27,956 bases of DNA, taken from Thermofilaceae archaeon. GTDB lineage: Archaea; Thermoproteota; Thermoprotei; Thermofilales; Thermofilaceae. The notes below the pieces were generated by a model. It saw only the letters and a list, made by a program, of their open reading frames with translations, had not been told where the DNA came from and searched no databases. Positions within the stretch are counted from its first letter, which is position 1. The number at the start of each line of letters is the position of its first letter. Below are positions 3,847 to 26,531 of this stretch, in pieces. A program made the translations under genes and the position numbers. The stretch covers positions 1 through 27,956 of the forward strand of contig JAVYWK010000024.1 in assembly GCA_038727095.1 (NCBI GenBank). Direction: 5' to 3'.

Positions 3847-3870
3847 TTTATAAGGAACAACCTTGCAAGG
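3847..3870 (+). promoter_or_regulatory. TATA box (TTTATAAG, 3847-3854) plus 10-bp palindrome CCTTGCAAGG (3861-3870) upstream of the SBP gene
   Basis: The TATA ends about 22 nt before ATG 3877, consistent with a leaderless transcript. It is preceded by about 170 bp of very AT-rich DNA. Confidence 0.6.
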
Positions 3871-3876
3871 CATTAC

Positions 3877-8940: not shown

Positions 8941-9189
8941 TTGATGGCGAAGAAGACTGTTGCAGTTACGGAGGAGACTTACAAGATCCTTGTAGAGTTG
9001 AAGCAGAAGATGGGTTGCAGAACGATGGATGAAACGGTGAGAAGGTTGGCGGAGCTCTCCAAAAGGGCTCTCGCCGTCGAAGCGCTGGAGCACGTGAGAA
9101 GCAAGCAGCTGAGCAGGGAGGAGGTTGAAGCTCTAGCTAAACTGAGAGAGAGACTGAGGGAGGAAGGTGTGTGGTTGAGAAGATCGTAG
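8941..9189 (+). CDS. vapB: VapB-type antitoxin (ribbon-helix-helix-like N-terminus); probable start ATG 8944
   Basis: 82 aa. KTVAVTEETYKILVELK...MDETVRRL fits a strand-helix-helix pattern, and the gene overlaps the downstream PIN gene. Confidence 0.8.
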   Translation: MMAKKTVAVTEETYKILVELKQKMGCRTMDETVRRLAELSKRALAVEALEHVRSKQLSREEVEALAKLRERLREEGVWLRRS

Positions 9190-9566
9190 TCGATACAAAC
9201 ATCCTAATCGACATCTTTGAGCGAGGAAACGAGAGGCTCCTGCTGAAACTCCTGGAGTTTGAGGTGTTTGTACCCTCCGTCGCCCTCTATGAATACCTGT
9301 GGGGGTACCTCTACATCGGCCGCGATTACCTGAGGGAGAAGGAGCTAATCGAGAAACTCTTCGCAGTTGTTTACCCCGACCAGCGGATCACGCTCAAAGC
9401 GATGGAACTGGAAGTTCAACTCAGGAAGCAGGGATTCTCAATCCCACAGGCTGACGTTCTAATCGCAGCAACCGCTCTCACACTCAATGCCCCGCTACTC
9501 TCCAGAGACCTGGAGCACTACGAGAAACTGAGGAACTTCGGGCTAAAAATCCTCACCGAACTGTAG
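9171..9566 (+). CDS. vapC: VapC PIN-domain toxin
   Basis: IVVDTNILID, ALYEYLWG, ADVLIAATA and LLSRDLEHY contain the PIN acidic residues. 131 aa. Confidence 0.93.
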   Translation: MVEKIVVDTNILIDIFERGNERLLLKLLEFEVFVPSVALYEYLWGYLYIGRDYLREKELIEKLFAVVYPDQRITLKAMELEVQLRKQGFSIPQADVLIAATALTLNAPLLSRDLEHYEKLRNFGLKILTEL

Positions 9567-9974
9567 CCGCCTACCAACAATATTCATGCTGCTGCTAACC
9601 CGTTAAGCAGTCTCCACACTCAGTGCACACGATATTGTAAGCTCCTCACACCCGATCATAAACATCGATCAGCGGCTCTGGAAAATTTCAGGAAGCAGAA
9701 GACCACAAATTATCGAAAAATTCAATTTATTAAACTCGATATTTCCCATAAAATTGCTAACATAGTGTAAACTACAAAGTCGCTTAATATTGATAAAAAT
9801 AGATTAAAAATAAGTTTATAAGTACCGAAAAATAATAAAAAACAAAATTAATATGAATTAACTTAATTTAGAAACAATAAAGAATCTCTTGAATTATAAA
9901 ATAAATTTTTAGATTTATTTTATTCTTAACTTTTAAAGATTATAACCTTAAAATTCTCTCAGGTAAAATCTTGA

Positions 9975-9988
9975 GAAAAATTTATATA
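9975..9988 (+). promoter_or_regulatory. BRE-TATA promoter (GAAAAA-TTTATATA) of the YbjN-like / zinc-ribbon / PrsW operon
   Basis: Consensus archaeal BRE plus TATA, ending about 28 nt before GTG 10017. Confidence 0.7.
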
Positions 9989-10016
9989 GGCTATTTTTAC
10001 CATCTTATCGAAAGAT

Positions 10017-10466
10017 GTGAAACCCGTAAAAATTGGCGATATAGAGGGATGGTTAAAAGAAAAGAATATAAAATTTGAGAAAGCTGGTCAAACTATAGTT
10101 ATTCCTTTTGAATCCACGCTTGTCGCTATTAGGGAATTTTCATGGAAAGAGGGTTTAAATATTATTGAGATAATTGCTACGGTAGCTGTAGAAGTTAAAC
10201 CTAGCCTCGACCTCTTCAGATTTCTCCTCGAGAGGAATGCTGAAACTCCTTTCGGGAAATTCACTTTTGTTGAAAAGGGATTGGACATGAAACCGACGGT
10301 ATTCTTTACGCACTCCCTTCTAGGCGCAAAACTCGATAAAATCGAGTTTGAAGAAGCTTTGAACACCATAATCAGTTTTGCAGATTTCTACGATGAGAAG
10401 ATTGCGGAACTTGGACAAGGGAAAACTTTTAGGGATTATTCAAAAGAAAAAACTGGTGGAAAGTAG
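10017..10466 (+). CDS. YbjN / type III secretion chaperone-like fold protein
   Basis: 149 aa and soluble. LFRFLLERNAETPFGKF, FFTHSLLG..LD..EF and ADFYDEKIAE.GQGK resemble YbjN-family members. Recognised by eye only. Confidence 0.6.
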   Translation: MKPVKIGDIEGWLKEKNIKFEKAGQTIVIPFESTLVAIREFSWKEGLNIIEIIATVAVEVKPSLDLFRFLLERNAETPFGKFTFVEKGLDMKPTVFFTHSLLGAKLDKIEFEEALNTIISFADFYDEKIAELGQGKTFRDYSKEKTGGK

Positions 10467-10783
10467 TGTCTAAAACTCTCGGTACGGTATTAATAATTTT
10501 AGGAGTCTTCGTTCTACTTTTCATCAACATTCTCCTAGGCATACCCCTGATTATAGCCGGCTTTTACCTCAGAAGGAAAACCCAACCCCCAGCCTACATG
10601 CCCCCACAGGCCCCCTACGGTTTCTACTACCCGCAACCGGTTCAACCTCCACCACCGCCGCCACCACCTCCCGTCCAACAGCAGCAGCCGATGGTTGCTC
10701 AACGCTACGTTTGCCCGAACTGTGGTCAACTACTATCGGGGCGCGAATCCTACTGTCCACGTTGCGGCGTACGGTTATCGTAG
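10466..10783 (+). CDS. Small membrane protein: N-terminal TM hairpin, Pro/Gln-rich linker, C-terminal zinc ribbon
   Basis: About 30 hydrophobic residues, then RRK, a poly-Pro run and CPNCG-x8-CPRCG. Its start overlaps the upstream stop (TAGTG). Confidence 0.8.
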   Translation: MSKTLGTVLIILGVFVLLFINILLGIPLIIAGFYLRRKTQPPAYMPPQAPYGFYYPQPVQPPPPPPPPPVQQQQPMVAQRYVCPNCGQLLSGRESYCPRCGVRLS

Positions 10784-10801
10784 ACGGCTGGTGTTCTTAT
10801 C

Positions 10802-11935
10802 ATGGCCTCTGTAACTTGCTGGAGTTGCGGTCAGCAGAACGATTCGAGGAACCTTTACTGCATCAATTGTGGTCAACCCTTACGTGCTAAGATGTGCCCA
10901 AGCTGCGGGCAACAGGTGCAGGTGAACGCTAACGCATGCCCACGTTGCGGCTACTCGTTCCAGCCTCAAAGCCTTTCAGCCTACAGGTATTCGATGAACC
11001 AATCAACCCCTTACGTTGAACCGAGCTTTACTCCGCGGAGAAGCCTCATTGAAAATGTTAAATTGATTCACAATTTAATCTTCAGTAAAAGACCCCCGAT
11101 ATATAGGGCTTCTCAGGAGGTTTATGGGAGGCTACCATGGTCTACCATAAATTCGTCTGGAAAGTACCTCAACTATGCCCTATTTTCGATCCTGGCTGGA
11201 GTCGGGCTTGTCTTCCTCATATCCCTCACCGAGGGGGTGGTCGATTACTTCGTCGTAGCGTTTGTAACAGCGATCATACCAGCTTTAATGTACTTGCTCT
11301 GGATGAGCAGGAACGATAGGTTCGAGCCTGAACCAGCATGGATGATAGCTCTAGCCTTCGGTTGGGGGGCTCTCTCAACACTTCCAGCCATAATACTAAA
11401 CGATCTTACCTTTTCCCTAGTAGGGGGTTGGAGCGGGGTAGCGGGATTGACAGAGGAGCCGTCAAAGATGCTTGGTGTTTACCTTATGGCTGTAAGCCCC
11501 AACCTGAGAAACGAGTTTAACGATCACCTTGATGGTCTAATCTACGGCGCAGCTGCAGGGTTGGGTTTCGGCTTCGTGGAAAACATCCTGTATATTACGC
11601 GGCTAGTCGGTGAGAACCCACTGATCATCGGGATCAGAGCCATAACGATAGGCATGCACATGTTCTGTACAGGCCTCATCGGCTGGTGGATGGGCTACTT
11701 GAAAGTTCACGGTATAAGCATCAACCTCACAAACATTCTCCCCGCTTTAGCCTACTCCGCAACACTCCACATGTGCTGGAACACAATAGGCAGTTTCGAA
11801 TACTTGAGCCTGATAGTCTTCATAGCTGGCCCAATACTGGTCTTATACCTCAATAAAATGGCTAAAGAAGCTTTGATCGATGAGTACTACTGGGGCTTCG
11901 CATCAGGCTACGCACCCGTCGAGATGACAAGATAA
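10802..11935 (+). CDS. PrsW-family membrane protease fused to an N-terminal double zinc ribbon
   Basis: N-terminal CWSC/CINC/CPSC/CPRC. PrsW motifs: DRFEPEP, TEEPSK (EExxK), DGLIYGAAAGLGFGFVEN (FxxxEN), GMH and LHMCWN (HxxxN). Confidence 0.9.
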   Translation: MASVTCWSCGQQNDSRNLYCINCGQPLRAKMCPSCGQQVQVNANACPRCGYSFQPQSLSAYRYSMNQSTPYVEPSFTPRRSLIENVKLIHNLIFSKRPPIYRASQEVYGRLPWSTINSSGKYLNYALFSILAGVGLVFLISLTEGVVDYFVVAFVTAIIPALMYLLWMSRNDRFEPEPAWMIALAFGWGALSTLPAIILNDLTFSLVGGWSGVAGLTEEPSKMLGVYLMAVSPNLRNEFNDHLDGLIYGAAAGLGFGFVENILYITRLVGENPLIIGIRAITIGMHMFCTGLIGWWMGYLKVHGISINLTNILPALAYSATLHMCWNTIGSFEYLSLIVFIAGPILVLYLNKMAKEALIDEYYWGFASGYAPVEMTR

Positions 11936-11992
11936 AATACCCTTTAATCTCACTTTTTAGCATTAAGATTTAGTAAAATTAATTAAAAATTT

Positions 11993-12529
11993 TTACCATT
12001 CTTTCGTGTAAACTCTTGAAGCGAGCTTAGCAGCTACATAGCTGTAGCAGGGTGAGCCCGTGTGCTTTACCGATTTCTCCCCTATGATGTGCACCACCTC
12101 CACATCCGTCGCGGTGAGCGCGTCAGCGATGAACTGCCTGTGACAGTACTCGGGTTTCCCCTCCCTGCAGATGATCAGCGGGGCCAAACCTTCGACAGCC
12201 ATACCCCGTATCAGCGATAAGGCCCTGAGAGCTTGGGGCTCGGTCGTCAGGTAGACCACGTACGACTGGAATGTTGGCGAGCTAGTGCACGTCACGGGTT
12301 CTGCAACCCTGTACCTCTTGCTCAAACCAAGCGCCCCGAGCTCGCCGAGCCAGACGTATGAGACCCCGACCCGCTCCAGCTCCGCTCTCAGGTTCTCACC
12401 GGTGTAGAAGCTGACGCTCGAGCGGGGGAACCTGCGCACGTCAACCACCACCCTGCAGCCGAGCTTTCCCACTATCTCGAGGAAGCGCTCAGGCTTTACA
12501 CCCCCGTAACCGAGCGTGTACGCTCGCAC
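11993..12529 (-). CDS. DUF488 family protein
   Basis: YTLGYG, VVDVRRFPRS, Y.WLGELG, CREGKPEYCHRQFIAD and VVHI match the DUF488 pattern. Confidence 0.85.
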   Translation of the reverse strand: MRAYTLGYGGVKPERFLEIVGKLGCRVVVDVRRFPRSSVSFYTGENLRAELERVGVSYVWLGELGALGLSKRYRVAEPVTCTSSPTFQSYVVYLTTEPQALRALSLIRGMAVEGLAPLIICREGKPEYCHRQFIADALTATDVEVVHIIGEKSVKHTGSPCYSYVAAKLASRVYTKEW

Positions 12530-12578: not shown

Positions 12579-15548
12579 TCAACCGTAGAGGACTGCTCTT
12601 AGACCTTTGAAGCCGAAGGGTCTCAGCACGTACTCATCGATCCAGTGGGCTTCGTCGGTGAACGTCTCGGGGCCCGTCCACGCGGGGTCCCCGCCCGCGT
12701 AGTGGAGTGGTCCGAAGAGGTTCCTCAGCGTCCCGACGAGCACAACCCTGACATCGTTGACGCCCGGCTTCACTAAGCCCGTGACGTCCACTTCGAAGGG
12801 GGGTAGGAAGACCTCCCCTGCTCTGCCCCCGTTGACGTAGACCTCGGCTAGCGCGGCGTTCAACTCGCTGAACCTCAGCGCGACCCGCTTCGCAAGGCTT
12901 GGGAGCTCGAAGCTCCTCCTCAGCTCCACCGAGCCAGCGTAGAAGGGTAGGCCTTCGCGGCAGAGGTCGGAGGCGTCGACGATCCTCCTCTCCTCCACGA
13001 TCCGCGAAGCCCCTCTAGGCCGCGGCTCCACTCCGAAGCTGCCGAAGATGTAGATGGGCTCCAGCTCCGGTTCAACACCAACCGTGCCCGACAGCTCGAC
13101 CGTGTTCACCCCTTGGACCAGCAGGCTGGATGCATCAGCAACCCCAAAGCTCGGGTCGAACCAGCTCCTCTCCCAATCCGTCACCGGCTTACCGTTCACT
13201 TTAACATCGTAGAGGTGCGGCTGCTCCAGCACCAGTTTTGCGCCCGTAGAGGCGGGCTCGGCTAGGCACTCGAACTCGAACTTGAGAGCGAAGCACGTAC
13301 CAAGGCCCTTGGTCGAAATCAACCTTTGCGCGCGCCAAACGGGTAAAACATCGCTCCATGATCCTCCGTCAACGCTGAACCTGCAGTAGTCCAGGACGAG
13401 CGCGTTGGGCTCCAGCCTCTTCAACTCCCAGCCGCTTTCGCTAATAGTCACCTCGAGCACCGGCTTGAGCTTGGGCTCCGGCGGCAGTGGTTCACCCCGG
13501 GTAAAGCGTATCAAGGTTGAGCCAATAGGAGGAAGCTCCAGCTCAACCCACGTCCTCGCTCCGCTCTCCCGCGCCCCGAGGTCGCGCACCTCGCCTGTGA
13601 ACGCGTTCCAGAGTTCCGGCTTCCACGCTCCTTCAATGCCTATTCTCAAGCTCCTCGAGGCTGCTCTATCCGTGTTCGCCAGGAAGAGCAGCAACCCGTC
13701 GTCCAGCTCCCTTAAGTGGTAGAGGACAGAGCCCTCGGGGTCGCCCTCGATCAAAACGGGCCTCGGGACGCCTTTCAGAGCCTCCTCCAGCGAGCTCCTC
13801 TCCAAGGGTACGAGCTTCGCTTGGCTCACGAGATCCTTTAGCTCGCTGGACGGCACGCCCTCAACCCTCTCGGGTGGGGTTCCCGTGAAGATGAGAGTGC
13901 CACCTGCCCTCGCGAACTCGGTGAGCAGCTTGAGGGTTGTGGAGGCGATTGTGACGCTCGGCGGCACTATCACCGCGTCGTACAGCGCCCTCCCCACCCT
14001 CAGCTTGCGCCCTTCGACGGACGAGTGTTTCGCCATGATCGTCTCGTCGCCCAGCTCGAAGTCGATGTGTAAGGCAAGCAGCTCCCTCAGCAGCTTCCCG
14101 AGGCTCTCGTCGAGCTCTGCAACCCTCTTCTCGGCCAACGGCGTGTAGAGAGCCCAAGCGCTCCCGATCGGGTGAACGACTAGGACGTTCGCCACCCTGA
14201 CGCCCCGCGAGAGAGCGTAGCTGAGCCTGGCGAAGTAGTCCTCGATTAAGCGGTTGTACCTCCACCAGGGCTGGGCCCAGTGGAAGTTGAGGCCGTAATC
14301 CCGCTTCCGCCTACCCCTCAGCGAGTAGGGGAGTAGGTGGTGGTTGAGGAGGTTAACGCCGAGCGCGTAGAGGAAGTCGCCGATCCACTTCCGGTCGGCG
14401 AAGGTAGGGCAGTTGCCGGTGCAGCCGTACGTCTCGCAGAGCACGCGCTCCCGCCCCAGCTGGTTGGCTACGCTCGCCACCTGCTTCGCGGTCAGCAGGC
14501 TGCCCCAGATCTGGAAGCCCAGGTGGTCGATCCCTGGCACGTGCTGGTACTCGTAGTGGGGCATCACTGCGCCCGCGCACTTCAACTGGCTCAGGAGGCT
14601 ATCCTCCGCAAGGTAGTGGCCGGTGAACTTCAAGCCGTGCTTCTCGCACCACTCGTAGATCTGCCGGGAGAAGGCTTCGACGAACAGCAGCGTCACCGTC
14701 CTCCAGAAGTCGTACCGGGTCTTGAGGTAGTCCCCCAAGTCGAAGATGAGCTCCGGTAGCCTCCCCACGATGTCGTAACCGTTCAGCTCCCTAAACTTCT
14801 CCGGTAGCCTCCCGGTCCAGGGCAGGGAGACGGCTGGGAAACGGGGGCCGCGCGGCGGCAGCTGTACGCGGGGGTGGGGTCTGCTCGACTCGATGTTCGG
14901 CTCGTCTGTAAAGACCCCCGGTATCGTGCGCCCGAACTCCTCCCTGAACCTCAGGTACGGTTCGTAGGCCTCCTCGATGAACAGCTTCACGGCGCCCCGG
15001 TCTAGGAGGTCTACGTAGCAGAAGCCCTCGTACCAAGTCTCGCCCGGCTGCGCGACGTACTCGACGAACGTCAGGTACAGCGGAGCTTTCCCCGCTTCCC
15101 CGGCTTCCGCCCTCTCATAGCGGATCGGAACACCTCTTTCGTCTAGGTGCACCCGGAAAGCGGCGACAACGCGTGGACCGCTGAACGCCCTCTCCGACGC
15201 GACGGCGACGAGTGCTTTAGCCGCTGCTCCAGGGTCGCGTGCCGGCACGAGCCCTCCCGCGAAGCCGGAGGGCCATCTCAGCTCGTCGTACATCCAGATG
15301 TAAGCGCCCAACCGCTTCGCAGCCTCGACAGCAGCCCTGAAGGCCTCGAACCACTCTTCGCCCAGAAATAGGGTGACTAGTCCCTCTCTCGCATGGAAGA
15401 ACGCTCCGCCGAAGCCGGCGTCAACCATCCTATCGACCTGCCTCGCCACCTCCTCCGGGTCCAGCTTATCGTTGATCGACCAGAAGGGGGCGCCCCTGTA
15501 CTCCATCGGGGGTTCCGCGAAGAGTTTAGGGTCGAGCACGCAGCTCAA
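12579..15548 (-). CDS. Large cytoplasmic glycoside hydrolase, GH106 (alpha-L-rhamnosidase)-like; probable start GTG 15539
   Basis: PFWSIN, GFGGAFFHAREGL, WMYDELRWPSGFAGG, GVFTDEP, FTGHYLAE, PGIDHL, AKQVASVA and CETYG, followed by C-terminal beta-sandwich segments (GLPFYAG, AEVYVNG). No signal peptide. Substrate uncertain. Confidence 0.75.
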   Translation of the reverse strand: MSCVLDPKLFAEPPMEYRGAPFWSINDKLDPEEVARQVDRMVDAGFGGAFFHAREGLVTLFLGEEWFEAFRAAVEAAKRLGAYIWMYDELRWPSGFAGGLVPARDPGAAAKALVAVASERAFSGPRVVAAFRVHLDERGVPIRYERAEAGEAGKAPLYLTFVEYVAQPGETWYEGFCYVDLLDRGAVKLFIEEAYEPYLRFREEFGRTIPGVFTDEPNIESSRPHPRVQLPPRGPRFPAVSLPWTGRLPEKFRELNGYDIVGRLPELIFDLGDYLKTRYDFWRTVTLLFVEAFSRQIYEWCEKHGLKFTGHYLAEDSLLSQLKCAGAVMPHYEYQHVPGIDHLGFQIWGSLLTAKQVASVANQLGRERVLCETYGCTGNCPTFADRKWIGDFLYALGVNLLNHHLLPYSLRGRRKRDYGLNFHWAQPWWRYNRLIEDYFARLSYALSRGVRVANVLVVHPIGSAWALYTPLAEKRVAELDESLGKLLRELLALHIDFELGDETIMAKHSSVEGRKLRVGRALYDAVIVPPSVTIASTTLKLLTEFARAGGTLIFTGTPPERVEGVPSSELKDLVSQAKLVPLERSSLEEALKGVPRPVLIEGDPEGSVLYHLRELDDGLLLFLANTDRAASRSLRIGIEGAWKPELWNAFTGEVRDLGARESGARTWVELELPPIGSTLIRFTRGEPLPPEPKLKPVLEVTISESGWELKRLEPNALVLDYCRFSVDGGSWSDVLPVWRAQRLISTKGLGTCFALKFEFECLAEPASTGAKLVLEQPHLYDVKVNGKPVTDWERSWFDPSFGVADASSLLVQGVNTVELSGTVGVEPELEPIYIFGSFGVEPRPRGASRIVEERRIVDASDLCREGLPFYAGSVELRRSFELPSLAKRVALRFSELNAALAEVYVNGGRAGEVFLPPFEVDVTGLVKPGVNDVRVVLVGTLRNLFGPLHYAGGDPAWTGPETFTDEAHWIDEYVLRPFGFKGLRAVLYG

Positions 15549-15638: not shown

Positions 15639-17087
15639 CTAGCGGCGCCTACCTTGCTGCCCGCATTCGATCAGGAGAAGCCAGCCGTTAGGCAGCTGCT
15701 TTTCGTTGGCGAACATGATGGGCAGACCCTTGGACAGCGGGTTCGGGACCCTTACGGCGAAGTACCGCCCCTCGCTGCAGTAGCGGGAGACGTTGTGGAG
15801 CACGTGCGACCAGACGACGGTCTCGTTGGGCAGTATCCCTGCAACCGTGTTCCCGCTCACCTCTGCGTAGACTGCTTCCCCACTGGCCGTGACAATGCCG
15901 AACTCCACCGGCCAGTCGTAGTAGAAGGGGGCTATGCCGAAGTTCTTCACTACGACGTGTACGCTCACAGAATCGCCCGGGAGAGGCTCGACGGAAGCGT
16001 AACACACAGCGAAGGTGTAGCCCATCCGCTGGGATGCTTCAGCTGCCCTTCTCAGCTCCGCCGATGTGTATGGATGGGAGAAGAGCCGATCCATGAGTAG
16101 GTAGCTGGCGTGAGTAGCTTTAATGCACTGCATGAAGTGCTCGAACAGGTCGGCCCTCCTGAAGACGTCCGCTTGGATCTCCGGGCGGACTTCGCCCCCG
16201 ATCGGTTCGGTCTTCCACCTTTCAGTCAACCCAGCCCTCCGTAGCTGGTTGTAGAAGTACCAGTCCACTTCCCCCAGCGTGGCGTAGGCGAAGGAATCGT
16301 CGTGGAAGCCTACGTTGTAGTCCCGCGTTACCCTGCTCGGGTAGCGAACTTGCAGCCTCGTTACGTTGAAGCTTCGATCATAAGCCTCAAGCACAGCCCG
16401 CTGCGTTTCTTCGCTGGCGAACCACTCGTTATGCGGGTAGGTGTGCCACTCCCCCCAGAAGCCTAGAAGCCCAACCTGGATAAACGCTATCCTGGGGTCA
16501 CCGTCGTACCTCCTACCCAGCACCCGGATGAACTCCACCATGAGCTTCACCATGCGAGGGTCATCGTAGTCAGGCGACAATCCGCCACCGTACTCCTCGT
16601 ACCTCCTCATCTCAACCCCCGCTTCAATCAAGCACTTGGGAACCCCCGTCGGCAGGCTGGGGTAGTCGAAGTAGAAGCGGAGTATCAGCTGGTGCCCTCG
16701 CCCCGCAACTTCGTTGAGAAGGTTCTCCAGGCGGGTAAAGTCAAAGTAGTACGCTGAGCCGTTGCACTTCACTACGCTGTTCACGGGGACGTACGCGAAC
16801 TCCATAGAGTAGGGGAGGGGCGCGCGCCCCCTCAAAGCTCGCGCCGTTTCAACAAAGGGTACGAAACCCTTCAGCGGGTTGGTGACCGGCACCGCTCCGA
16901 AAGGGATAACGTGCCACTCCCGCCCCGGAGGAGGTGAAGGGCGATCCCTCTCCGCGATCATACTCCTCCACTCTTCAGCGCGGCTTGAGGAGGAGAGAAG
17001 CCAGAAAGCCGCGGACGAAACAATAACAGCTGGAAGGAGGAGTATGGTAAGCCTCAAGCTTCTCGAGGAGCTCCATTTGGCAAGCAC
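15639..17087 (-). CDS. Membrane-anchored putative glycoside hydrolase (DUF4832-type, clan GH-A-like TIM barrel plus C-terminal Ig-like domain)
   Basis: N-terminal TM helix. NPLKGF, ILRFYFDYP, PDYDDP, YDGDPRIAFIQVGLLGFWGEWH, PIGGE, MGY and NFGIAPFY. Sequons NGS, NVT, NET and NVS. Confidence 0.7.
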   Translation of the reverse strand: MLAKWSSSRSLRLTILLLPAVIVSSAAFWLLSSSSRAEEWRSMIAERDRPSPPPGREWHVIPFGAVPVTNPLKGFVPFVETARALRGRAPLPYSMEFAYVPVNSVVKCNGSAYYFDFTRLENLLNEVAGRGHQLILRFYFDYPSLPTGVPKCLIEAGVEMRRYEEYGGGLSPDYDDPRMVKLMVEFIRVLGRRYDGDPRIAFIQVGLLGFWGEWHTYPHNEWFASEETQRAVLEAYDRSFNVTRLQVRYPSRVTRDYNVGFHDDSFAYATLGEVDWYFYNQLRRAGLTERWKTEPIGGEVRPEIQADVFRRADLFEHFMQCIKATHASYLLMDRLFSHPYTSAELRRAAEASQRMGYTFAVCYASVEPLPGDSVSVHVVVKNFGIAPFYYDWPVEFGIVTASGEAVYAEVSGNTVAGILPNETVVWSHVLHNVSRYCSEGRYFAVRVPNPLSKGLPIMFANEKQLPNGWLLLIECGQQGRRR

Positions 17088-17806: not shown

Positions 17807-18766
17807 TTACTTCGCGTAGAGCCAGCAGGCGACACTGTGCCCGCGCTCCAGCTCGGTGAAGAAGGGCTCATCCCTCTTGCACTTCTCGGTCGCGAAGGGG
17901 CAACGCGGGTGGAAACGGCAACCGGGCGGCACGTTGATAGGGGACGGGGGTTCTCCCTGTAGCCTCTCCTTCCTCCTATTCCTCAGCTTCGGGTTCGGTA
18001 TGGGGACTGAGCTGAGCAAGTACCTCGTGTAGGGGTGGGCGGGGTTCTCGAAGACCGCTTCCACACCCCCTGTTTCGACGATCTTTCCCAGGTACATGAC
18101 GGCAATCCTGTCACTCATGTAGTTAACCACGCCGATGTCATGCGAGATGAAGAGGTAGGAGATCCCACGCTGAGCCTGCAGATCCTTCAGCAGGTTGAGG
18201 ATCTGAGCTTGAACCGACACGTCGAGGGAGGACGTGGGCTCGTCGAGAACTATCAGCGAAGGATTGAGGAGCAGTGCCCGCAGGATCGCGACGCGCTGCT
18301 TCTGTCCCCCACTGAGCTCGTGCGGATACCTGAAGAGGTGCTCCTTTCCTAGGCCGACCGAGCTTAGCTGCTCAACGATGAAAGACTCCGGATCGTCGGG
18401 GAGCAAGCCGTGCTCGTTTAAGGGTTCGAGGAGGATCTCATAAATCGTCATTCGGGGGTTCAGCGACGTGTTAGGATCCTGGAACACCATCTGAGCCCTC
18501 CTCCTGAACTCCTTAAGCGCTCGCCCCTTCAGCTTTGTTACATCCATCCCATCGAATAGCACCCTTCCCTCGGTGGGCTCGATCAGCAGGATTGAAAGTC
18601 GGCCCAACGTCGACTTCCCGCAGCCACTCTCGCCAACTAGACCCAGCGTCTCTCCTCGGCCTACTTCCAAGGTCACTCCGTCGACCGCCTTCAGAGCACT
18701 GAACAGCGACCCTCTAACACGGAAGTACTTTTTCACACCCTCTAACCTGATGAGCGCCATGGCCAT
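17807..18766 (-). CDS. oppF: Opp/Dpp ABC ATP-binding protein (OppF/DppF-like); start ATG 18766 or 18760 rather than 18790
   Basis: [29 protein letters not shown] and C-terminal GCRFHPRC...C...VAC. SD GGAGGTGA overlaps the oppD stop. Confidence 0.93.
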
Positions 18767-19773
18767 CACCTCCTCAGATGGAGCCAGCAATGCACGATGT
18801 GCCCATCAGCCAGCTGCAGAGCACCCGGGAACTCTTTTTCGCAGACCTCCATGGCGTGGGGGCATCGAGGCGCAAACGGGCAGCCCGGTCCCATGTCGAT
18901 CAAGTTGGGAACGGAACCGGGTATAGACTCGAGCCTCTTCACCCTTCTAGTAGGATCCGGTACGGCACGGAGCAGCATCTCTGTGTAGGGGTGGGACGGG
19001 CTTTCGAAGATCGTGAAGACATCGGCCGTTTCCACAACCCTCCCTCCATACATTACGTAAACTCTATCGGCCACCTCTGCTACAACCCCCAAGTTGTGGG
19101 TGATCAAGATCACGCTCATCCCGTACTTCCTCCGCAGCTCATCGAGCAGGTCCAGGATCTGCGCTTGGACGGTTACGTCCAGGTTCGTTGTAGGCTCGTC
19201 GGCGATCACGAGCTTAGGTTTGTTCGCAATCGCCGTAGCTATGACGACCCTCTGCCGCATCCCACCGCTCAGCTCGTGCGGGTAGCTCTTAACCCGCACC
19301 TCCGGGTTCGGGATAAGGACGTCCTTCAGGAGTCTGACGGCCTCCTTCCTCGCCTCCCCCTTCCCAACCTTCTGGTGCTCAAGTATAGTTTCCATGATGT
19401 GGTCGCCAGCGGTGTAAAGGGGATCCAACGCGCTGCTGGGATCTTGGAACACGTATGCTATCTCATACCCCCTGATCTCCCCGAGCTCCTCCTTATTCAG
19501 CTTAGCCAGATCCACGACCGAGCCATCCTTCCTCTTGAACAGCACGCTCCCCGCCTCCACTCTACCCGGGGGTTCGATGAGGCCAGTCAGCGCTCTTGTG
19601 AAGACGCTCTTACCGCTACCCGTCTCGCCCACGATGGCTACGGTCTCACCCTCGTAGACGTTTAAGTAGGCTTCAGTGACCGCGTGGACGACGCCCGCGT
19701 AAGTGTAGAAGCGGACTGTCAGCCCGCGAGCCCTAAGAACCTGATTATCCATCATCTCAGCCATGGTCGTCAC
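18766..19773 (-). CDS. oppD: Opp/Dpp ABC ATP-binding protein (OppD/DppD-like); probable start ATG 19764
   Basis: [31 protein letters not shown] and GCPFAPRC...C...VHC. Confidence 0.93.
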
Positions 19774-20877
19774 CTACAACTTCGCCTTCAACTCGATCGA
19801 CCTCCTCGTCTTGGGGTCGAACACATCTCGAAGGGCGTCGCCCAGCATGTTCCACCCCAGCGAGATCAGCAGCAGGGCAAAACCGGCCTCCACCACGATC
19901 CACCAGCTCCTCTCAGGGAAGTACTGGCCGGCCATCGAGATGAGGAGGCCAAGGTCGGGCACCGGCGGCTGGGCTCCCAAGCCTAGGAAGGAGAGAGCAG
20001 CTGAGGAGAGAGCTGCTGTGGCCATGTCGAACGTGAACATAACGAGCAGCGGTGAGGAGATGTTCGGCAGTACGTGCTTCATGAGGATCCTCCACGTAGA
20101 AAGGCCTAGAGCCCTCGCAGCCTCGATGAAGCCCTGCTCCCTCAGCGTCAACACCGAGCCCCTCACGACTCTTGCGTACGGCGGCCACCAGACCAGGATC
20201 AGGGCTAGGAAAAGAGATAGGATGTTCGCGATGTTCGGCGCGTCGGCCGGGTTCAACGCAAAAAGGGCTGCTAGGAGTGCGGTGAGCGCCGTATTAGAGA
20301 TCAGGACGTTCCTGAGGGATATGCGCAGTGTAAGACTGAAGGCGATCGCGAGCACGAGGCCGGGGAAGGCGAGCATCATGTCGGTAAACCTCATGATCGC
20401 CTCATCGATGAAGCCGCCGAAGTAGCCCGAGACCAAGCCGAGGAGCACGCCGAGAGCAGCGCTGGCCACCACGATGATGAGGCTCATGACCAGCGCGATC
20501 CGGAAGCCCCTCATGATGAGGGAGAGGATGTCGCGCCCATAGACGTCCGTTCCGCTCAGGGGCATTCCGCTGCAGTCGTTCATGCATGGGGGATGCGGTA
20601 GCCTGCCCGCGAGAGCAGGGTTCTTCAAAACGGGGTACATGTCGTAGGGCTCCCACGAGAGTGACGGCCCGAAGAGGGCTAGAAAGGTTGTAGTGAGCAC
20701 GAGCACCAGGCCGGCGGCACCCGTCTTGGAGGTCGTCAGCGCGTACAGCGTAAGTTTCATCTCCTGCAGCTTGGATTTGTTTCTTTCGAGCCAGCCCGGG
20801 TTGAACCTCTCCCTGAGCTCAGCGTATTTGTTCAGAAGCACAGTGGAGGACTTGTACAGGATGTTCATGCAGCCCAC
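19774..20877 (-). CDS. oppC: Opp/Dpp ABC permease (OppC/DppC-like); probable start ATG 20868
   Basis: GTDVYGRD, SGYFGG, FIEAARALG, KHVLPN, LSFLGLG and LGDALRDVFDP. Confidence 0.93.
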   Translation of the reverse strand: MGCMNILYKSSTVLLNKYAELRERFNPGWLERNKSKLQEMKLTLYALTTSKTGAAGLVLVLTTTFLALFGPSLSWEPYDMYPVLKNPALAGRLPHPPCMNDCSGMPLSGTDVYGRDILSLIMRGFRIALVMSLIIVVASAALGVLLGLVSGYFGGFIDEAIMRFTDMMLAFPGLVLAIAFSLTLRISLRNVLISNTALTALLAALFALNPADAPNIANILSLFLALILVWWPPYARVVRGSVLTLREQGFIEAARALGLSTWRILMKHVLPNISSPLLVMFTFDMATAALSSAALSFLGLGAQPPVPDLGLLISMAGQYFPERSWWIVVEAGFALLLISLGWNMLGDALRDVFDPKTRRSIELKAKL

Positions 20878-21936
20878 CTAGTACCTCACTCTTGGGTCAA
20901 TCAGCGCGTAAACGATGTCGACAACAAGGTTCATAACTATGTAGACCAGAGAAAACAAGAAAGTCCCCGCGATTATGACGGGGAAGTTGAGGCGCGAAAT
21001 CCCCTGGTATATGTACCTGCCCACACCCGGAATGTTGAAAACCGTTTCAGCGATTATCGCCCCCGTCAGTAGGCCGGCGAAGTGGAGGCCTAGTATGGTC
21101 ACGATGGGAGCGAAGCCGTTCTTCAACGCGTGCCTCCAAACTCTCATGTCAGATAACCCCCGCGCCCTAGCGAAGAGAATCGAATCGGAGCTCAGCGCGT
21201 CGAGGAGGCTGTTCCTTACCACCCTCGCCAGGAAGCCCGCGGAGAGTACACCGAGCGCAAACCCCGGAAGCCACATCCTCGCGAAGGTGCTCGAAACCAC
21301 GTTCATCTCACCGCACATCAGCGCACCAAATATTGGTACCTGACCGAGAGCCCAAGCGACATAACCGATTACTGGAACACCTTCTCTCAACCCCTCCAGC
21401 ATCAGAGCGCAGGAGCGTGAGAATATCGGGACTCCGGCCATCAGAGAGGCTTTCACTTGAACATAGAAGAGGAGGATCAGGAAGTAGTAGAGTACAAACC
21501 CCGGTATCGAGCTCCCAACGAGTGCGAAGACCCTTACGAAGAGGTCGGCGAAACTGTCGCGCTTAGCAGCTGCTATAATCCCCAGCGGAATGCCGATCAG
21601 CACTGTGAAGGCAAACGCGAATATAGCCAGCTCCACGGTTATGGGGAAGCGGTCGGTCACCTGCTTTACCACGAGTTCGCCCCTCGTCGGATCCTTCAGC
21701 CGCCCTGTTACCAGCTGGTAAACTAGGAAGCCGAACTGCTCGTACCATGGTGCATCGAACCTGTACTCTTTTCTCAGCTGCTCCAGTGTTTCGGGGTTGA
21801 GTAGCTTTTCCCCAACCCACGCTCTAACAGGGTCGGTCGGTATCACGTAGGCTATTAAGTACGTGATCAGGAGGGCGCCGATTACACTCGGGACAAAAGT
21901 GACTACCCGTCTGGCTAAAAAACTGGCTAACCCCAT
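20878..21936 (-). CDS. oppB: Opp/Dpp ABC permease (OppB/DppB-like)
   Basis: PTDP, RFPITVELA, GIPLGI, ARARGL, RHALKN, AETVFNIPGVG and VDIVYALIDPRVRY. Confidence 0.93.
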   Translation of the reverse strand: MGLASFLARRVVTFVPSVIGALLITYLIAYVIPTDPVRAWVGEKLLNPETLEQLRKEYRFDAPWYEQFGFLVYQLVTGRLKDPTRGELVVKQVTDRFPITVELAIFAFAFTVLIGIPLGIIAAAKRDSFADLFVRVFALVGSSIPGFVLYYFLILLFYVQVKASLMAGVPIFSRSCALMLEGLREGVPVIGYVAWALGQVPIFGALMCGEMNVVSSTFARMWLPGFALGVLSAGFLARVVRNSLLDALSSDSILFARARGLSDMRVWRHALKNGFAPIVTILGLHFAGLLTGAIIAETVFNIPGVGRYIYQGISRLNFPVIIAGTFLFSLVYIVMNLVVDIVYALIDPRVRY

Positions 21937-21966: not shown

Positions 21967-24132
21967 TCACGGTTTGAATCCGTAGAGCTCCTGCCACAAC
22001 GTAGCGTTCCAGTAGTACGGGTTGTACCTGAGCAGGATGTAGCTGTCCTCCTTGTAGTCCGCCACGAAGTAGGGTCCCGTTGATACAGGCTTCGTGGATA
22101 ACAGCATGAAGACCGGGTCGTCGCTGCCTGGGCTCACGTACTTTGCCCATGCTGCAGGGTTCCTCCCGTTGTTCGAGTCGGCTAGAGCTGCGCGGTACTG
22201 GTCGCCTAAGGCGTACTGCATCGGGAAGATGGAGCCCACGCCTGTCACGAAGATTTGCATAATCGGCACGTAGGGGAACTTCAGCTTAAACCGCACGACG
22301 CCTGCCGTCGGCCCTGAGTACCCGAAGAAGTTGAGCAGGCTTTCTAGGCTCGTAACTTCAGCGCTACTGCCACGGAAGCTCGTCACTAGGCCCTCGCTCC
22401 TTGCGATGCTGTCCAGTTCAGACTCCGTCAGCACGCTGGAGGCGTTGATATCGATGAACTCGGCTATCATCCACTGAGGCCCGCCTGGCAGGTTTGCTCT
22501 CACTGCCCTCCATATGCTGAACAGAGCGTCGACAGCGGTTATGGGGTACGTCTTGTTGTTCCAGGGATCGTAGGCAACGACATTGCCCCTGATGATGAAG
22601 TAGAGATCCGTCATGTTCCTGCTGAAAGCCCACGCCACCGCGAGCTCGGGAACAGGCTCTGTCTCCTCCTTCCAAAGGGTCACAAGCCTCCCGTAAACGT
22701 GCCAGAAGATTTCCCAGCCGAAAGACTCGTAGGACTTCGCGGGGTCAAACGTATCGGGCCAGCCTATCGTGCCGATGACCATCGTCTCAGGATCGTTAAC
22801 CACGTTAAGGACGCCTGTGTCGACGACCGGTGCCTTCCGATCCTCGTAAACGAGGTCGTACCGGGCGAACGTGGAAAGCGGGTAATACATCCCGTAGACC
22901 CAGCTACCGTAGTTCTCGCCTCTAATGTTCTGGCCCATCATTATCATCGAGCACATTCGGTTGAACTTGATGACAGCAGCCTGTATCACGGCTTCCCGCA
23001 CGTTGGGCTCAACGATCTTCTGCGAAGCCTTACAAAGGGCACTTAGAACTATGTCCTTCAGGCCGCCCGCGCCGAGGGTCACCATACTCACGGGGTTCTC
23101 CCAGTTGGCTTCAGTAGCGCTCCAATCAACGCTGTAACTCACCACAATTAAGGGCTTGTTCGTTGGGCCCGTGTACGCGGCCCCCGTGCCCTTAGGACCG
23201 ACCACGACGATGAAGCGCTCCGTCTCGATGGCCTCATCAACTGAAGCAATGAAGTTCTCCACATCGGCTGGAGCCACGTTAGCTCGGTAATCGATCGCTT
23301 CGAACACGCCACCGCCATAGACGAAGGGCATCAGGTAGTTGTCGGGGTCGAGGTAGTCAGGGATCCAGCCCAGCAGCATCACGTCGTACTGGAAGTGGTC
23401 CACAAGCTCGAGGTACTTAGGCCACGCGTAGGCTTCGACGACAACCTTGAAGCCCAGCTCACCCCACGATTGCTGTAGCAGCGCTGCGATCTGCTGCCGG
23501 GCGGTGCTGCCTTCGTTGTAGATGATGGTGATTGTGTACTTACTGGGGTCGAAGCCCCTATCCTTCAGGGAGTTTATGATTTCTTTGGCCTTTGACATAT
23601 TGTACTCAAACTTGGCGATTCCAAACTCGGTGTACCCAGTCAACCCCTTGGGTACGATGGTGTAAAGCCTTGTGTACAGCCTGTTAAACACTTGGTTTAG
23701 GATAACGTCATAGGGTGTGGCGTAAGCCAGGGCTAAACGAACTTCCGTAATGTTGAGCGGCACGCTCATCGGGTTCAATCCTATGTACTGTATCGTCAGG
23801 CCTGGCCTATCCGGTCTCCGCACGAGACGAAGCGTGAAGTTACCAACGGGAGTGTTGTTCACATCGGGCCAGCGCGCGGGCGTTACAGCTGCGATGTCGA
23901 AAACACCCGTCTTATACATGTTGATTCTCGTACCTTCATCGTTCACTACGACGTAGAGGATCGCCTTGTGGAAGGGGGGCTTCACAACAGGTTGCTCCTC
24001 AACTGGCGGCTGGGGAGCTGCTGGTTTTTGGAGAAACATGAAAGCAGCAATCGCTGCAACCACGATCAAAATTACCGCTGCAGCGATCAAGAGTAAACTT
24101 CGCCTACCCCGGTTCTGCATCACAGGCTTCAT
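21967..24132 (-). CDS. oppA: Family-5 (OppA/DppA) solute-binding protein, N-terminally membrane-anchored and circularly permuted
   Basis: N-terminal TM and Pro-rich linker. The recognisable family-5 motifs are present but the halves are swapped: the canonical N-terminus (MVIGTIGWPDTFDPA) starts at about residue 449 and STGPY...RYNPYYW sits at the C-terminus. Confidence 0.9.
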   Translation of the reverse strand: MKPVMQNRGRRSLLLIAAAVILIVVAAIAAFMFLQKPAAPQPPVEEQPVVKPPFHKAILYVVVNDEGTRINMYKTGVFDIAAVTPARWPDVNNTPVGNFTLRLVRRPDRPGLTIQYIGLNPMSVPLNITEVRLALAYATPYDVILNQVFNRLYTRLYTIVPKGLTGYTEFGIAKFEYNMSKAKEIINSLKDRGFDPSKYTITIIYNEGSTARQQIAALLQQSWGELGFKVVVEAYAWPKYLELVDHFQYDVMLLGWIPDYLDPDNYLMPFVYGGGVFEAIDYRANVAPADVENFIASVDEAIETERFIVVVGPKGTGAAYTGPTNKPLIVVSYSVDWSATEANWENPVSMVTLGAGGLKDIVLSALCKASQKIVEPNVREAVIQAAVIKFNRMCSMIMMGQNIRGENYGSWVYGMYYPLSTFARYDLVYEDRKAPVVDTGVLNVVNDPETMVIGTIGWPDTFDPAKSYESFGWEIFWHVYGRLVTLWKEETEPVPELAVAWAFSRNMTDLYFIIRGNVVAYDPWNNKTYPITAVDALFSIWRAVRANLPGGPQWMIAEFIDINASSVLTESELDSIARSEGLVTSFRGSSAEVTSLESLLNFFGYSGPTAGVVRFKLKFPYVPIMQIFVTGVGSIFPMQYALGDQYRAALADSNNGRNPAAWAKYVSPGSDDPVFMLLSTKPVSTGPYFVADYKEDSYILLRYNPYYWNATLWQELYGFKP

Positions 24133-24269: not shown

Positions 24270-26531
24270 TCAGATTGGCTGGACTACTGACTCGGCTAGC
24301 ATTTTACCCCGCTTACCCACAATAACGGTTTCGCGCACTCTGATGGTCCCCTTAAGCCCCTCATCCTCCGCGTGCCTAGACACTGAGAGAGTGTAGACGC
24401 CTTTCTCCACAACGAGCCTCATACCGGGGTCGTAGTAGGCTAGCAGCTCGAGAGGTAGAGAGAAGGTGACTCTCACCCTCTGGCCGGGCTTTAATGTAAC
24501 CCTCCTGAAGCCTTTAAGCTCTTTAATGGGCCTCGCGACGCTAGCTGTAGGTCTAGACGCGTAGAGCTGGACAACTTCGTCGCCCTCCCTACCGCCCACG
24601 TTCTCAACGGTGACTGAAACTCTGATCGAGCCTTCAAGCCCAACCTCGCTGGGCTCGACTAACAAGTCCCTGTACTCAAACCTTGTGTAGCTGAGGCCGT
24701 AGCCAAAGGGGTAGAGGGGCTTCGCATCGGCCTCAACATACCTGTTAAAGGACGACGGTTTGCGCCTATAGAAAACTGGGATCTGCCCAGCGCGAGCTGG
24801 TACCGAAATGGGTAGCCTCCCTCCCGGATTCGCGTAGCCGAAGAGCACTTCCGCCACTGCCGTGCCGCCTTCCTCACCCGGGTGCCAAGCTTCGAGTAGC
24901 GCCCCGATTCTGGCCAGAAGCCTCCCGGGTAGCGCTAAAGGCCTCCCGCTGACGAGCACGACAACAACGGGTTTCCCCAACTCGAGGAGCTCCCCTAGCA
25001 GCTCTGATTGGACGCCGGGTAAGCCGAGCTCGCACCGGTCCAACCCCTCACCCGAGCAGAGCTCCGGTTTCCCCAGCCAGAAGCCGCCGGACCGCTCACC
25101 CAGCACAGCCACGATGGCTTCAGCCTTCTCGGCGGCTTCGATAGCCTCCCTGAAGCCGCTCCTGTCCTCCATGAGGATCCCGCATCCTCTCGCGTAGTAG
25201 ATCTCGATGCCGCTGGGCGCGAGCCTTTTGATACCCTCAAGAACTGTCACGACCTCGACGGCCGGCGCGTCTAAGCCCAGGTGGGCCGCGTAATGGTAGT
25301 CGCCGAGCATGCAGAGCGGATCGTCAGCGCAGGGTCCAACAACGGCTATCCTTCTCGCCTTCAGCGGCAGCATGCCCCTGTTCTCCAGCAGGACTACCGA
25401 CTTCCTCGCCGCTTCGCGCGCAAGCTTTCTCGCTTCAGGGTTGTCGAGAACGTCAGGGACGCTGCTCTCGTCGACGTAGGGGTTCTCAAAGAGGCCCAAA
25501 AGGGCCTTTACACGGAGGACGCGGGCGGCAGCTTCATCAACCCTCTTCTCGGAGACCAAGCCCTCCCGCACCGCATCGATCAGCCTCCGGTAGCAGTCCG
25601 GGTGGGGCAGCTCTATGTCGACCCCAGCCTCCAGCGCTTTAATAGCAGCCTCCAAGTCGTCCCCCGCCACCCTGTGGTAGGTCTGAAGCTGCCTGACCGC
25701 AAAGTAGTCGGAGACGACAATACCCTCGAAACCCCACTCATCCCTCAGGATCCTACGAAGAAGCCAGCTGTTCGCGTGGCACGGGACCCCGTCGATCTCA
25801 TGGTACGCCGGCATAATCGCCGCTAAACCAGCCTCCTTCACGGCCGACTCGAAGGGGTACAGCACCGCCTCCCTGAACTCCCTCTCGCCCACGCGCACGG
25901 GTGCCGTGTTCCTCCCACCCTCGGGGAAACCGTGGCCAGCGAAGTGCTTCCCCGTCGCTAAAACGCCGCCCCGCAGGCTCCCCTGCACACCCTTCACGTA
26001 TGCGACGCCGATAGCAGCTGCCAGGTAGGGATCCTCTCCGTAGGTTTCCTCCGTCCTACCCCACCTCGGGTCCCAGCTGAGGTCAAGCACGGGGGCGAGA
26101 ACGTGCCTGCAGCCCACAGCTAGAGCCTGCCTCCGGATCTCTTCTGCAACCCTTTGCACCAGCTCGGGGTCCCACGTGGCGGCTAGCGCGATCGCCTGCG
26201 GGAAGCAGGTAGCAGTTGGAGCCATGAGCCCCGCAAGCGACTCTTCGTGCACGATCGCGGGGATCCCGAGCCTAGTCTCCTCAACGAGGAACCTCTGCAC
26301 CTCGTTAACCAGCCTAGCTGCCTCCTTCGGCGAGAAACCCAGCCGGCTGCCGGAAACCCTGGTGATCTGGCCGATACCGTTCGAGAGGAGCTTCCTAGCC
26401 TTCTCACGCGAGAAGGATCTACCCTCGACCAGCTCCTCGACAGGGACGGAGAGCAGCTGCGCAACCTTCTCCTCCAGCGTCATCCGCGAGAGGAGATGTT
26501 CGACAGCCTTCGAGATTTCCAGCTGCGCCAC
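24270..26531 (-). CDS. GH3 beta-glucosidase/beta-xylosidase (BglX-like), cytoplasmic
   Basis: MTLEEKVAQL, RLGIP..HEE, DPRWGRTEETYGEDP, KHFAGHG, nucleophile motif VVSDY, SGEG.DR, PLYPFGYGLSYT and a C-terminal Fn3-like domain (EVVQLY..KELKGF). Confidence 0.96.
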   Translation of the reverse strand: MAQLEISKAVEHLLSRMTLEEKVAQLLSVPVEELVEGRSFSREKARKLLSNGIGQITRVSGSRLGFSPKEAARLVNEVQRFLVEETRLGIPAIVHEESLAGLMAPTATCFPQAIALAATWDPELVQRVAEEIRRQALAVGCRHVLAPVLDLSWDPRWGRTEETYGEDPYLAAAIGVAYVKGVQGSLRGGVLATGKHFAGHGFPEGGRNTAPVRVGEREFREAVLYPFESAVKEAGLAAIMPAYHEIDGVPCHANSWLLRRILRDEWGFEGIVVSDYFAVRQLQTYHRVAGDDLEAAIKALEAGVDIELPHPDCYRRLIDAVREGLVSEKRVDEAAARVLRVKALLGLFENPYVDESSVPDVLDNPEARKLAREAARKSVVLLENRGMLPLKARRIAVVGPCADDPLCMLGDYHYAAHLGLDAPAVEVVTVLEGIKRLAPSGIEIYYARGCGILMEDRSGFREAIEAAEKAEAIVAVLGERSGGFWLGKPELCSGEGLDRCELGLPGVQSELLGELLELGKPVVVVLVSGRPLALPGRLLARIGALLEAWHPGEEGGTAVAEVLFGYANPGGRLPISVPARAGQIPVFYRRKPSSFNRYVEADAKPLYPFGYGLSYTRFEYRDLLVEPSEVGLEGSIRVSVTVENVGGREGDEVVQLYASRPTASVARPIKELKGFRRVTLKPGQRVRVTFSLPLELLAYYDPGMRLVVEKGVYTLSVSRHAEDEGLKGTIRVRETVIVGKRGKMLAESVVQPI

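Follow-up and report, generated by a model that had tools for sequence, protein, structure and literature searches.

The window analyzed here comprises positions 1 to 27,956 (27,956 nucleotides, nt) of contig JAVYWK010000024.1 (assembly GCA_038727095.1) from a Thermofilaceae archaeon. One open reading frame (ORF) in the window, P0001, occupies exactly positions 21967-24132 of the minus strand; it starts with ATG and encodes 721 amino acids (aa) with no internal stop. The gene is located 30 nt upstream of the first permease gene, on the same strand, and it heads a complete Dpp/Opp-type ATP-binding cassette (ABC) transporter gene cassette (Table 1). Its product is a substrate-binding protein of family 5 (cluster C; SBP_bac_5, PF00496) with a circularly permuted chain. 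Three blocks are used throughout to describe the order. Block A is the canonical N-terminal part of lobe 1, which ends at NPYYW; block B is the strand following NPYYW plus lobe 2, ending at GW..DY.DPD; and block C is the C-terminal return into lobe 1. Canonical proteins read A-B-C, whereas P0001 reads anchor, linker, B, C, an 18-residue linker, A and a short tail.

Table 1. Coordinates of P0001, its segments and the neighboring genes in the window.
Feature	Coordinates	Strand	Evidence
Whole ORF P0001, 721 aa, circularly permuted family-5 substrate-binding protein, order B-C-A	21967..24132	-	Pfam, phmmer, model, structure alignment
Residues 1-34, basic N-terminus (NRGRR) and hydrophobic helix, probable membrane anchor or signal-anchor	24031..24132	-	Sequence; AlphaFold2 (AF2) helix 10-34; topology inferred
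Residues 35-54, Pro-rich flexible tether QKPAAPQPPVEEQPVVKPPF	23971..24030	-	Sequence; pLDDT 62-65
Block B, residues 55-281, post-NPYYW strand, then lobe 2 to GWIPDYLDPD	23290..23970	-	Pfam profile 150-365; DppA 257-417 (phmmer)
Block C, residues 282-431, beta-rich insertion specific to the family (about 282-357) and canonical C-terminal return into lobe 1	22840..23289	-	Structural alignment; AF2 strands/helices
Residues 432-449, linker from canonical C-terminus to canonical N-terminus, RKAPVVDTGVLNVVNDPE	22786..22839	-	Structure and sequence alignment bounds
Block A, residues 450-709, canonical N-terminal strand to STGPY...RYNPYYWN	22006..22785	-	
Residues 710-721 and stop, conserved C-terminal tail helix ATLWQELYGFKP	21967..22005	-	Alignment; AF2 helix 710-717
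Permease 1, BPD_transp_1 and BPD_transp_1_N, DppB/OppB-like	20878..21936	-	Pfam
Permease 2, BPD_transp_1, DppC/OppC-like	19774..20877	-	Pfam
ATPase 1, ABC_tran and oligo_HPY	18766..19773	-	Pfam
ATPase 2, ABC_tran and oligo_HPY	17807..18790	-	Pfam
GH3 glycosidase (beta-glucosidase-type) with Fn3-like domain, directly upstream	24270-26531	-	Pfam
DUF4832/DUF4874 protein, beyond the ATPases	15639-17087	-	Pfam
GH106-like 989-aa protein, beyond the ATPases	12579-15548	-	Pfam

A first-pass annotation of the window, made from the letters and translations only, had noticed the order as a displacement of short motifs. All of those motifs were present in the translated ORF, about where that annotation placed them. 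KAILYVVVNDEGTRINMYKTGVFD starts at residue 56 and is followed by YIGLN, VRLALAYA, YNMSKAKE, GWIPDYLDPD and EPNVRE; ETMVIGTIGWPDTFDPA, from the canonical N-terminus, starts at residue 449 (first codon at nt 22788), and STGPY...RYNPYYW occupies residues 684-708. When hidden Markov models (HMMs) of the individual blocks were applied, one copy each of A, B and C was found. The basic N-terminus, the hydrophobic helix at residues 10-34 and the Pro-rich linker, as judged from the sequence and the AF2 model, would be compatible with an extracytoplasmic location. At the position of the tether, homologues have P/T-rich linkers that are longer than that of P0001.

Comparison of the whole protein with PF00496 yielded 170 bits (E = 1.1e-49) in two stretches: profile positions 150-365 were matched at residues 57-275, and positions 1-142 at residues 492-709. 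Each half also exceeded the curated cut-off (32.4 bits) separately, with residues 55-444 matching profile positions 150-365 (132.8 bits, E = 2.1e-38) and residues 445-721 matching positions 1-142 (41 bits, E = 1.7e-10). Block C falls outside the coverage of the Pfam model. The profile does not run collinearly along P0001; its halves are swapped, and the same is true of the comparison to DppA. In a phmmer search of solved structures, 34 distinct chains were matched at E<=0.01, the best being the DppA proteins of Yersinia and Escherichia coli. For the latter (1dpp_A), query residues 450-548 aligned with DppA 2-102, 678-709 with 175-206, and 107-268 with 257-417. The first-pass annotation had proposed that this family-5 binding protein is circularly permuted in nature and expected matches in swapped order to the SBP_bac_5 HMM and E. 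coli DppA; the proposal is borne out by the swapped Pfam halves and the DppA stretches.

The positions of the old and new termini were likewise as proposed. The canonical C-terminus (DppA 507) maps to about residue 431 in the structure alignment and DppA residue 2 maps to residue 450 in the sequence alignment; the linker was therefore taken to be residues 432-449, and the old termini are joined near YDLVYEDRKAPVVDTG. The new termini were opened in the loop after NPYYW. In a Thermococcus barophilus relative, P0098, the chain is uninterrupted at this point, with NPYYWN... running on to ...HKRVIYV.

The structure of P0001 was modeled with AF2, using an input of 75 same-order homologues. The resulting model was of high confidence (mean predicted local distance difference test, pLDDT, 93.6; predicted template-modeling score, pTM, 0.88). 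A helix is predicted at residues 10-34, and low confidence is confined to residues 1-10 and the Pro-rich stretch. The linker at 432-449 is well ordered in the model, with mean pLDDT values of 96-97 for the 10-residue blocks that span 431-450. When the whole model was compared to the Protein Data Bank (PDB) with Foldseek, family-5 proteins were found exclusively, in alignments of ~375 columns; the best template-modeling (TM) score was 0.36 when normalized by query and 0.50-0.53 by target. No solved chain matched more than roughly half of the model when aligned sequentially, which is the pattern that would be expected if a sequential aligner were given a permuted chain. No solved chain with the order of P0001 was present among the Foldseek matches listed. 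Residues 433-721 were also folded alone (pLDDT 91.6, pTM 0.92), and this A-only model aligned from the N-termini of canonical chains (8are_A 18-225; 6dtf_A 31-238; 4oet_A 1-187). In many rows, the aligned range reached the canonical C-terminus because the last helix (710-717) was aligned to a C-terminal element of the target. Model residues 51-431 aligned with DppA 207-507. Since the A-only model aligns from the canonical N-termini and residues 51-431 align with this latter part of DppA, the two pieces tile the canonical chain in swapped order, covering DppA 1-507 without overlap. By these models, P0001 is predicted to have the bilobed cluster-C fold. DppA lacks a counterpart to approximately 150 residues of P0001, located at roughly 282-357 and in parts of 549-640. 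The new chain start aligns with DppA residue ~207. If domain I of DppA comprises residues 1-262 and 479-507 and domain II residues 263-478, which we take to be the limits, the cut at DppA ~206/207 would lie inside lobe 1, the same lobe that houses the canonical N-terminus, and both inter-lobe crossings would be retained. The tether may have shifted to another face of the protein, as had been suggested in the first-pass annotation.

The permutation is real and conserved, and it is no artefact of the assembly. A word-indexed search identified 202 relatives, of which 120 were listed; among the matches listed, members of Infirmifilum, Thermofilaceae, Desulfurococcus, Sulfolobales, Fervidicoccaceae and Pyrobaculum (names of taxa are given as in their sources) match 93-100% of the query, with identities of 48-81%. 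The Pyrobaculum aerophilum protein P0064, for example, is collinear with query residues 54-721 (50% identity). Homologues with the same order, a search for which had been recommended in the first-pass annotation, include 75 proteins from many sources with 42-80% identity to P0001. In the alignment of these 75 sequences, 67 columns distributed across B, C, the linker and A are invariant. G440 in the linker is among the invariant residues, as are W713 and Y717 in the C-terminal tail, where G718 and P721 are nearly so. Among 301 sampled genomes of the phylum, matches at E<=1e-30 occurred in 21 and full-length collinear ones in 15, several of which are single-contig genomes that are ~99% complete. 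The ratio of nonsynonymous to synonymous substitution rates (dN/dS) was calculated against a same-genus orthologue that is 90% identical. It was 0.061 overall, 0.052 for B, 0.047 for C and 0.058 for A, and 0.148 for the 18 linker codons. P0001 is thus under purifying selection. The same-genus orthologue (G262:C11:16240-18402, locus L003) is situated inside an open frame of 1297 aa, which suggests that no stop codon separates it from the upstream gene in that frame.

These data also bear on another possibility, namely that fragments of two binding proteins were fused into a decayed or non-canonical product in which the bilobed fold is not restored. Pfam does read two separate partial domains, and the ~150 residues lacking a DppA counterpart could be viewed in the same light. 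However, the whole chain was modeled with confidence, its two pieces tile DppA completely, the dN/dS is about 0.05 in each block alongside the 67 invariant columns, and the gene stands at the head of a complete cassette in each of the ten related loci that were compared. Such a fusion is therefore considered very improbable.

In each of those ten loci, four genes encoding 307-459 aa come after the gene for the binding protein; these downstream genes are longest-ORF calls, known by their size and layout and not by Pfam domains. One of the ten is the locus of a paralogue with the order C-A-B (see below). Outside the cassette, the neighboring genes differ from relative to relative. This last observation would be compatible with a protein that has an intact permuted fold but no longer feeds a transporter, acting as a surface receptor, sensor or scavenger like some orphan family-5 proteins. 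The proximity of the gene to the first permease and the five-gene layout of all ten related loci, including that of the C-A-B paralogue with its own cassette, speak against a role of this kind, and it is judged unlikely. P0001 is very probably a functional, membrane-tethered Dpp/Opp binding protein (family 5, cluster C), a natural circular permutant that serves the adjacent ABC importer. The anchor would have an N-in/C-out topology; the tethered protein would close on its ligand by hinge-bending (the "Venus flytrap") and, once loaded, would dock on the permease pair and deliver the ligand. By analogy to the rest of the class, capture by hinge-bending and delivery to the permeases are most likely the ordinary mechanism.

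Regarding the substrate, we lean slightly toward peptides over oligosaccharides. Asp259 is invariant in the 75 sequences and aligns (in phmmer) with DppA residue 408, presumably the residue that binds the amino group of the peptide. Taken with the peptidase neighbors in relatives, this residue is a sequence-level hint of a peptide ligand. To survey the neighbors, the 52 ORFs flanking the cassettes were scanned out of the 144 called in the ten related loci. A peptidase was found nearby in two of the ten: a Tricorn-type protease is directly upstream in one Pyrobaculum locus (L015), and an M42 aminopeptidase is upstream at the locus of the C-A-B paralogue (L020, genome G214). No glycoside hydrolase was detected at E<=1e-8 among the 52 flanking ORFs, and the other neighbors were unrelated genes. 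In the window itself, the G+C content is 0.42-0.46 at positions 3001-4000 and 9001-12000, compared to 0.55-0.64 in most of the sequence.

The usual origin of a circular permutation is a tandem duplication fused in frame, from which the outer parts are later lost. P0001 may have arisen in this way, i.e. by a tandem duplication or an in-frame fusion after which the outer parts were lost. Fused tandem family-5 proteins were observed among distant relatives. P0155, P0159, P0196, P0197 and P0203 have the order A-B-A-B in 1000-1240 aa; these five, with P0214 and P0168, were recorded as proteins of 1024-4308 aa that contain at least two family-5 units in tandem, in A-B-A-B or similar arrangements, at ~28-33% identity to P0001. 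They are possible models for a duplicated intermediate.

Several observations weigh against the reading of P0001 as a permuted, importer-serving binding protein or against a peptide substrate. The A-part stretches are individually weak in the phmmer comparison to DppA (i-Evalues of 9 and 160). The NCBIfam equivalogs (11 families listed, among them DppA_dipep, OppA (PRK15104), SapA, NikA and GsiB) were all far below their cut-offs, and the top one, DppA_dipep, scored 77.6 bits against a cut-off of 1005. The predicted placement of A on B and C as in canonical proteins is based on the pTM of 0.88 and on two separate alignments. The GH3 gene upstream and the GH106-like and DUF4832/DUF4874 genes downstream in the window favor an oligosaccharide. 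A duplicated B-C-A-B-C-A intermediate was not found among proteins of 1263-3605 aa at E<=1e-20, which is a weak negative. Finally, there is a break in the read-derived support. Logan contigs from four hot-spring metagenome runs, representing four studies, were mapped to the gene, and no contig spanned nt 22712-22749; in all four runs, contigs end and start there.

This break speaks for a chimera, in which parts of two different binding-protein genes, 5' from one and 3' from the other, would have been assembled across a conserved stretch into a single contig of the metagenome-assembled genome. In all four runs, nt 22712-22749 constitute a node in the assembly graph, a 38-nt unitig at ~2x the flanking depth, and encode the motif with the highest conservation in the family (residues 462-474, invariant FDPAKSYESFGWE). 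The unitig is presumably a node common to co-occurring relatives such as P0002 and P0003 (81% identical). Against a chimera, the whole gene was covered in all four runs without joints, indels or loose ends. The region singled out for a coverage check in the first-pass annotation, nt 22780-22900, was inside a single contig in each run. The contig that carries B and C also includes, upstream of the node, the C-to-A junction (nt 22786-22839) and the initial ~25 residues of A in all four runs. The depth is equal on either side of the node (e.g. 35.8 vs. 35.3). Continuity across nt 22712-22749 was concluded from overlaps of 22-30 nt, from this equal flanking depth and from the independent complete genomes. 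Given also the collinear full-length orthologues in 15 genomes, several of them on single contigs, and the same order in 75 proteins from many sources, an assembly chimera is effectively refuted.

Relatives of P0001 were found with other cut points. In T. barophilus P0098 (725 aa), query residues 302-716 align with residues 79-495 (46% identity), and query residues 53-281 with 497-720 (43%). Since query 302-716 precedes 53-281 in this protein, its order is lipobox, S/T linker, C-A-B. It keeps the C-to-A linker region, and its own ends fall at P0001 residues 282-301, where P0001 is continuous. The C-A-B form was found in five Thermoproteota genomes at ~48% identity to P0001. In one genome (G214), a B-C-A copy (77%) is encoded alongside a C-A-B paralogue (35%), the latter with its own transporter cassette.

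To count the orders, block HMMs derived from the alignment were run on 270 fetched proteins, of which 179 passed (at least 55% occupancy, less than 1000 aa, A and B present). The order B-C-A was assigned to 94 of the 179, the canonical A-B-C to 48 and C-A-B to 28; eight were cut inside B (B-C-A-B), and one had A-B only. P0047, P0050, P0051, P0055, P0062 and P0063 are N-terminally truncated fragments and not permutants. A tree was calculated from the concatenated blocks with FastTree and rooted at the midpoint. In it, all close permutants form one clade of 126 (support 0.90, stem 0.50), in which C-A-B forms are basal and both C-A-B and cut-in-B forms are also nested among B-C-A. Fitch parsimony gave eight cut-point changes in the clade, or seven after an artificially split label was merged; the count was the same after nodes with support <0.9 were collapsed. 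Related sequences share labels and the tree was a quick one, and several switches of the cut point are thus regarded as likely but not as proven. By approximate mapping, the cuts fall in predicted loops of P0001, i.e. before residue 55 and at ~92-98, ~192-199 and ~282-301. P0094, P0097 and P0123 are cut at about B position 45, and P0124 at about B position 140; P0124 and P0094 were each present on several contigs, and P0123 was a singleton. The type of anchor is independent of the cut point, with a membrane helix or a lipobox occurring in both B-C-A and C-A-B proteins. Because the junction of the old termini is common to relatives that start elsewhere, it appears to have arisen once in the clade, with the chain start having moved later. 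On balance, we slightly favor a history in which the old termini were fused once in a single clade (40-60% identity), the start then moved among at least four loops (about seven switches), and similar events recurred independently elsewhere in the family.

Swapped orders were also seen outside the clade. P0138, P0150, P0252, P0145, P0153, P0163, P0173 and P0175 (544-701 aa, 24-39% identity) have B...C-A(-B) orders, and the first three fall inside otherwise canonical clades of the tree; P0138, named as a PGF-CTERM protein, has seven cluster members. These short, distant proteins are probably further independent permutations. P0149 (582 aa) and P0134 (563 aa) are a permuted/canonical pair, 83-84% identical over both segments and with a similar N-terminal anchor. 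P0149 consists of the last ~160 residues of P0134 placed ahead of the first ~350, with a five-residue join. It is a singleton from one contig of 125,816 nt, and P0134 has eight cluster members; if real, P0149 would be a very recent independent permutation.

A second binding protein in swapped order, P0121 (894 aa), is encoded in the same genome as P0001 (contig C12:43510-46191, plus strand, corresponding to L001:511-3192). Its residues 498-680 align with 7fi3_A 105-290 and its residues 108-269 with 7fi3_A 401-573; Pfam profile positions 144-361 are matched at residues 33-278. The protein starts at the same post-NP.YW loop and ends with ...GDGPFY...RNYP, after which come an additional region and, at the C-terminus, a membrane anchor. 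BLASTP detected no similarity between P0121 and P0001. Full-length collinear relatives of P0121 were present in 185 of the 301 sampled genomes of the phylum. In architecture, P0121 resembles the OppA proteins of Sulfolobus solfataricus and Aeropyrum pernix as described (PMC3387779). Literature retrieved on 7FI3 consisted of AlphaFold benchmarking papers only.

P0001 can be set against three groups of natural proteins. Canonical cluster C/PF00496 proteins (E. coli DppA 1dpp, 1dpe and 8z1z; OppA 1ola and 1b52; HbpA2 3tpa) have the order A-B-C; P0001 differs from them in its B-C-A order, in the joining of the old termini by the 18-residue linker, in its N-terminal membrane helix and Pro-rich tether, and in the ~150 extra residues. 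The Thermococcales proteins annotated as DppA or ABC substrate-binding lipoproteins (P0098 of T. barophilus, P0090 of Pyrococcus yayanosii and P0120 of T. peptonophilus) are 46% identical to P0001 over both segments and have the insertions and the C-to-A junction in common with it. Their chains begin with C, preceded by a lipobox and an S/T-rich linker, and end after GW.PDYLD, whereas P0001 starts at B behind a membrane helix and has no lipobox. The cut-in-B relatives (P0094/P0097/P0123 and P0124; 40-47% identity) belong to the same family and have the same C-to-A junction, but their chains start inside lobe 2, in the loops that map approximately to residues ~92-98 and ~192-199 of P0001.

Circular permutation is uncommon in nature, and most known examples stand alone. 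A full-text literature search, the scope of which excluded the archaeal OppA studies of Balestrieri 2011 and Gogliettino 2010, returned no natural circular permutation of an OppA/DppA-type protein. This outcome agrees with the statement in the first-pass annotation that no natural permutant of the family had been described, but it does not establish it. Periplasmic binding proteins have been permuted by engineering, whole or as halves, with halves of the ribose-binding protein (PMC9815098) and biosensor scaffolds (PMC6335823) as examples. These show that bilobed binding proteins can tolerate new termini; the proteins concerned are laboratory constructs from other clusters (class I sugar binders and MBP), neither natural permutants nor members of family 5. 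PMC8694067 mentions circular permutation generically. Pyrococcus furiosus PF1408 is described in PMC3824201 as an abundant secreted lipoprotein annotated as dipeptide-binding, and it may be a candidate member of the C-A-B group.

The permuted forms are easily overlooked in domain annotation. The PF00496 model ("Middle") omits block C, and residues 273-714 of P0098 match profile positions 1-365 collinearly; C-A-B permutants consequently look ordinary. Since Pfam splits B-C-A proteins into partial domains and reads C-A-B ones as ordinary, domain-based pipelines will not flag the permutation.

In P0001 and its close relatives, the chain of a hinge-bending class of proteins is cut at several different loops, yet the fold and the transporter partners are retained. 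If the chain start has indeed moved repeatedly after a single fusion of the old termini, and if similar events have recurred elsewhere in the family, a recurrent gene-level mechanism would be implicated, i.e. duplication in tandem or fusion in which the anchor-coding 5' segment is preserved, and the fold would be unusually tolerant of, or selected for, shifts in the attachment point of the tether. The family constitutes a natural data set on how the connectivity of the chain affects the way in which bilobed proteins fold, their stability and their dynamics at high temperature, on where new termini or reporter insertions fit in binding-protein biosensor scaffolds, and on the gene-level origin of permutations.

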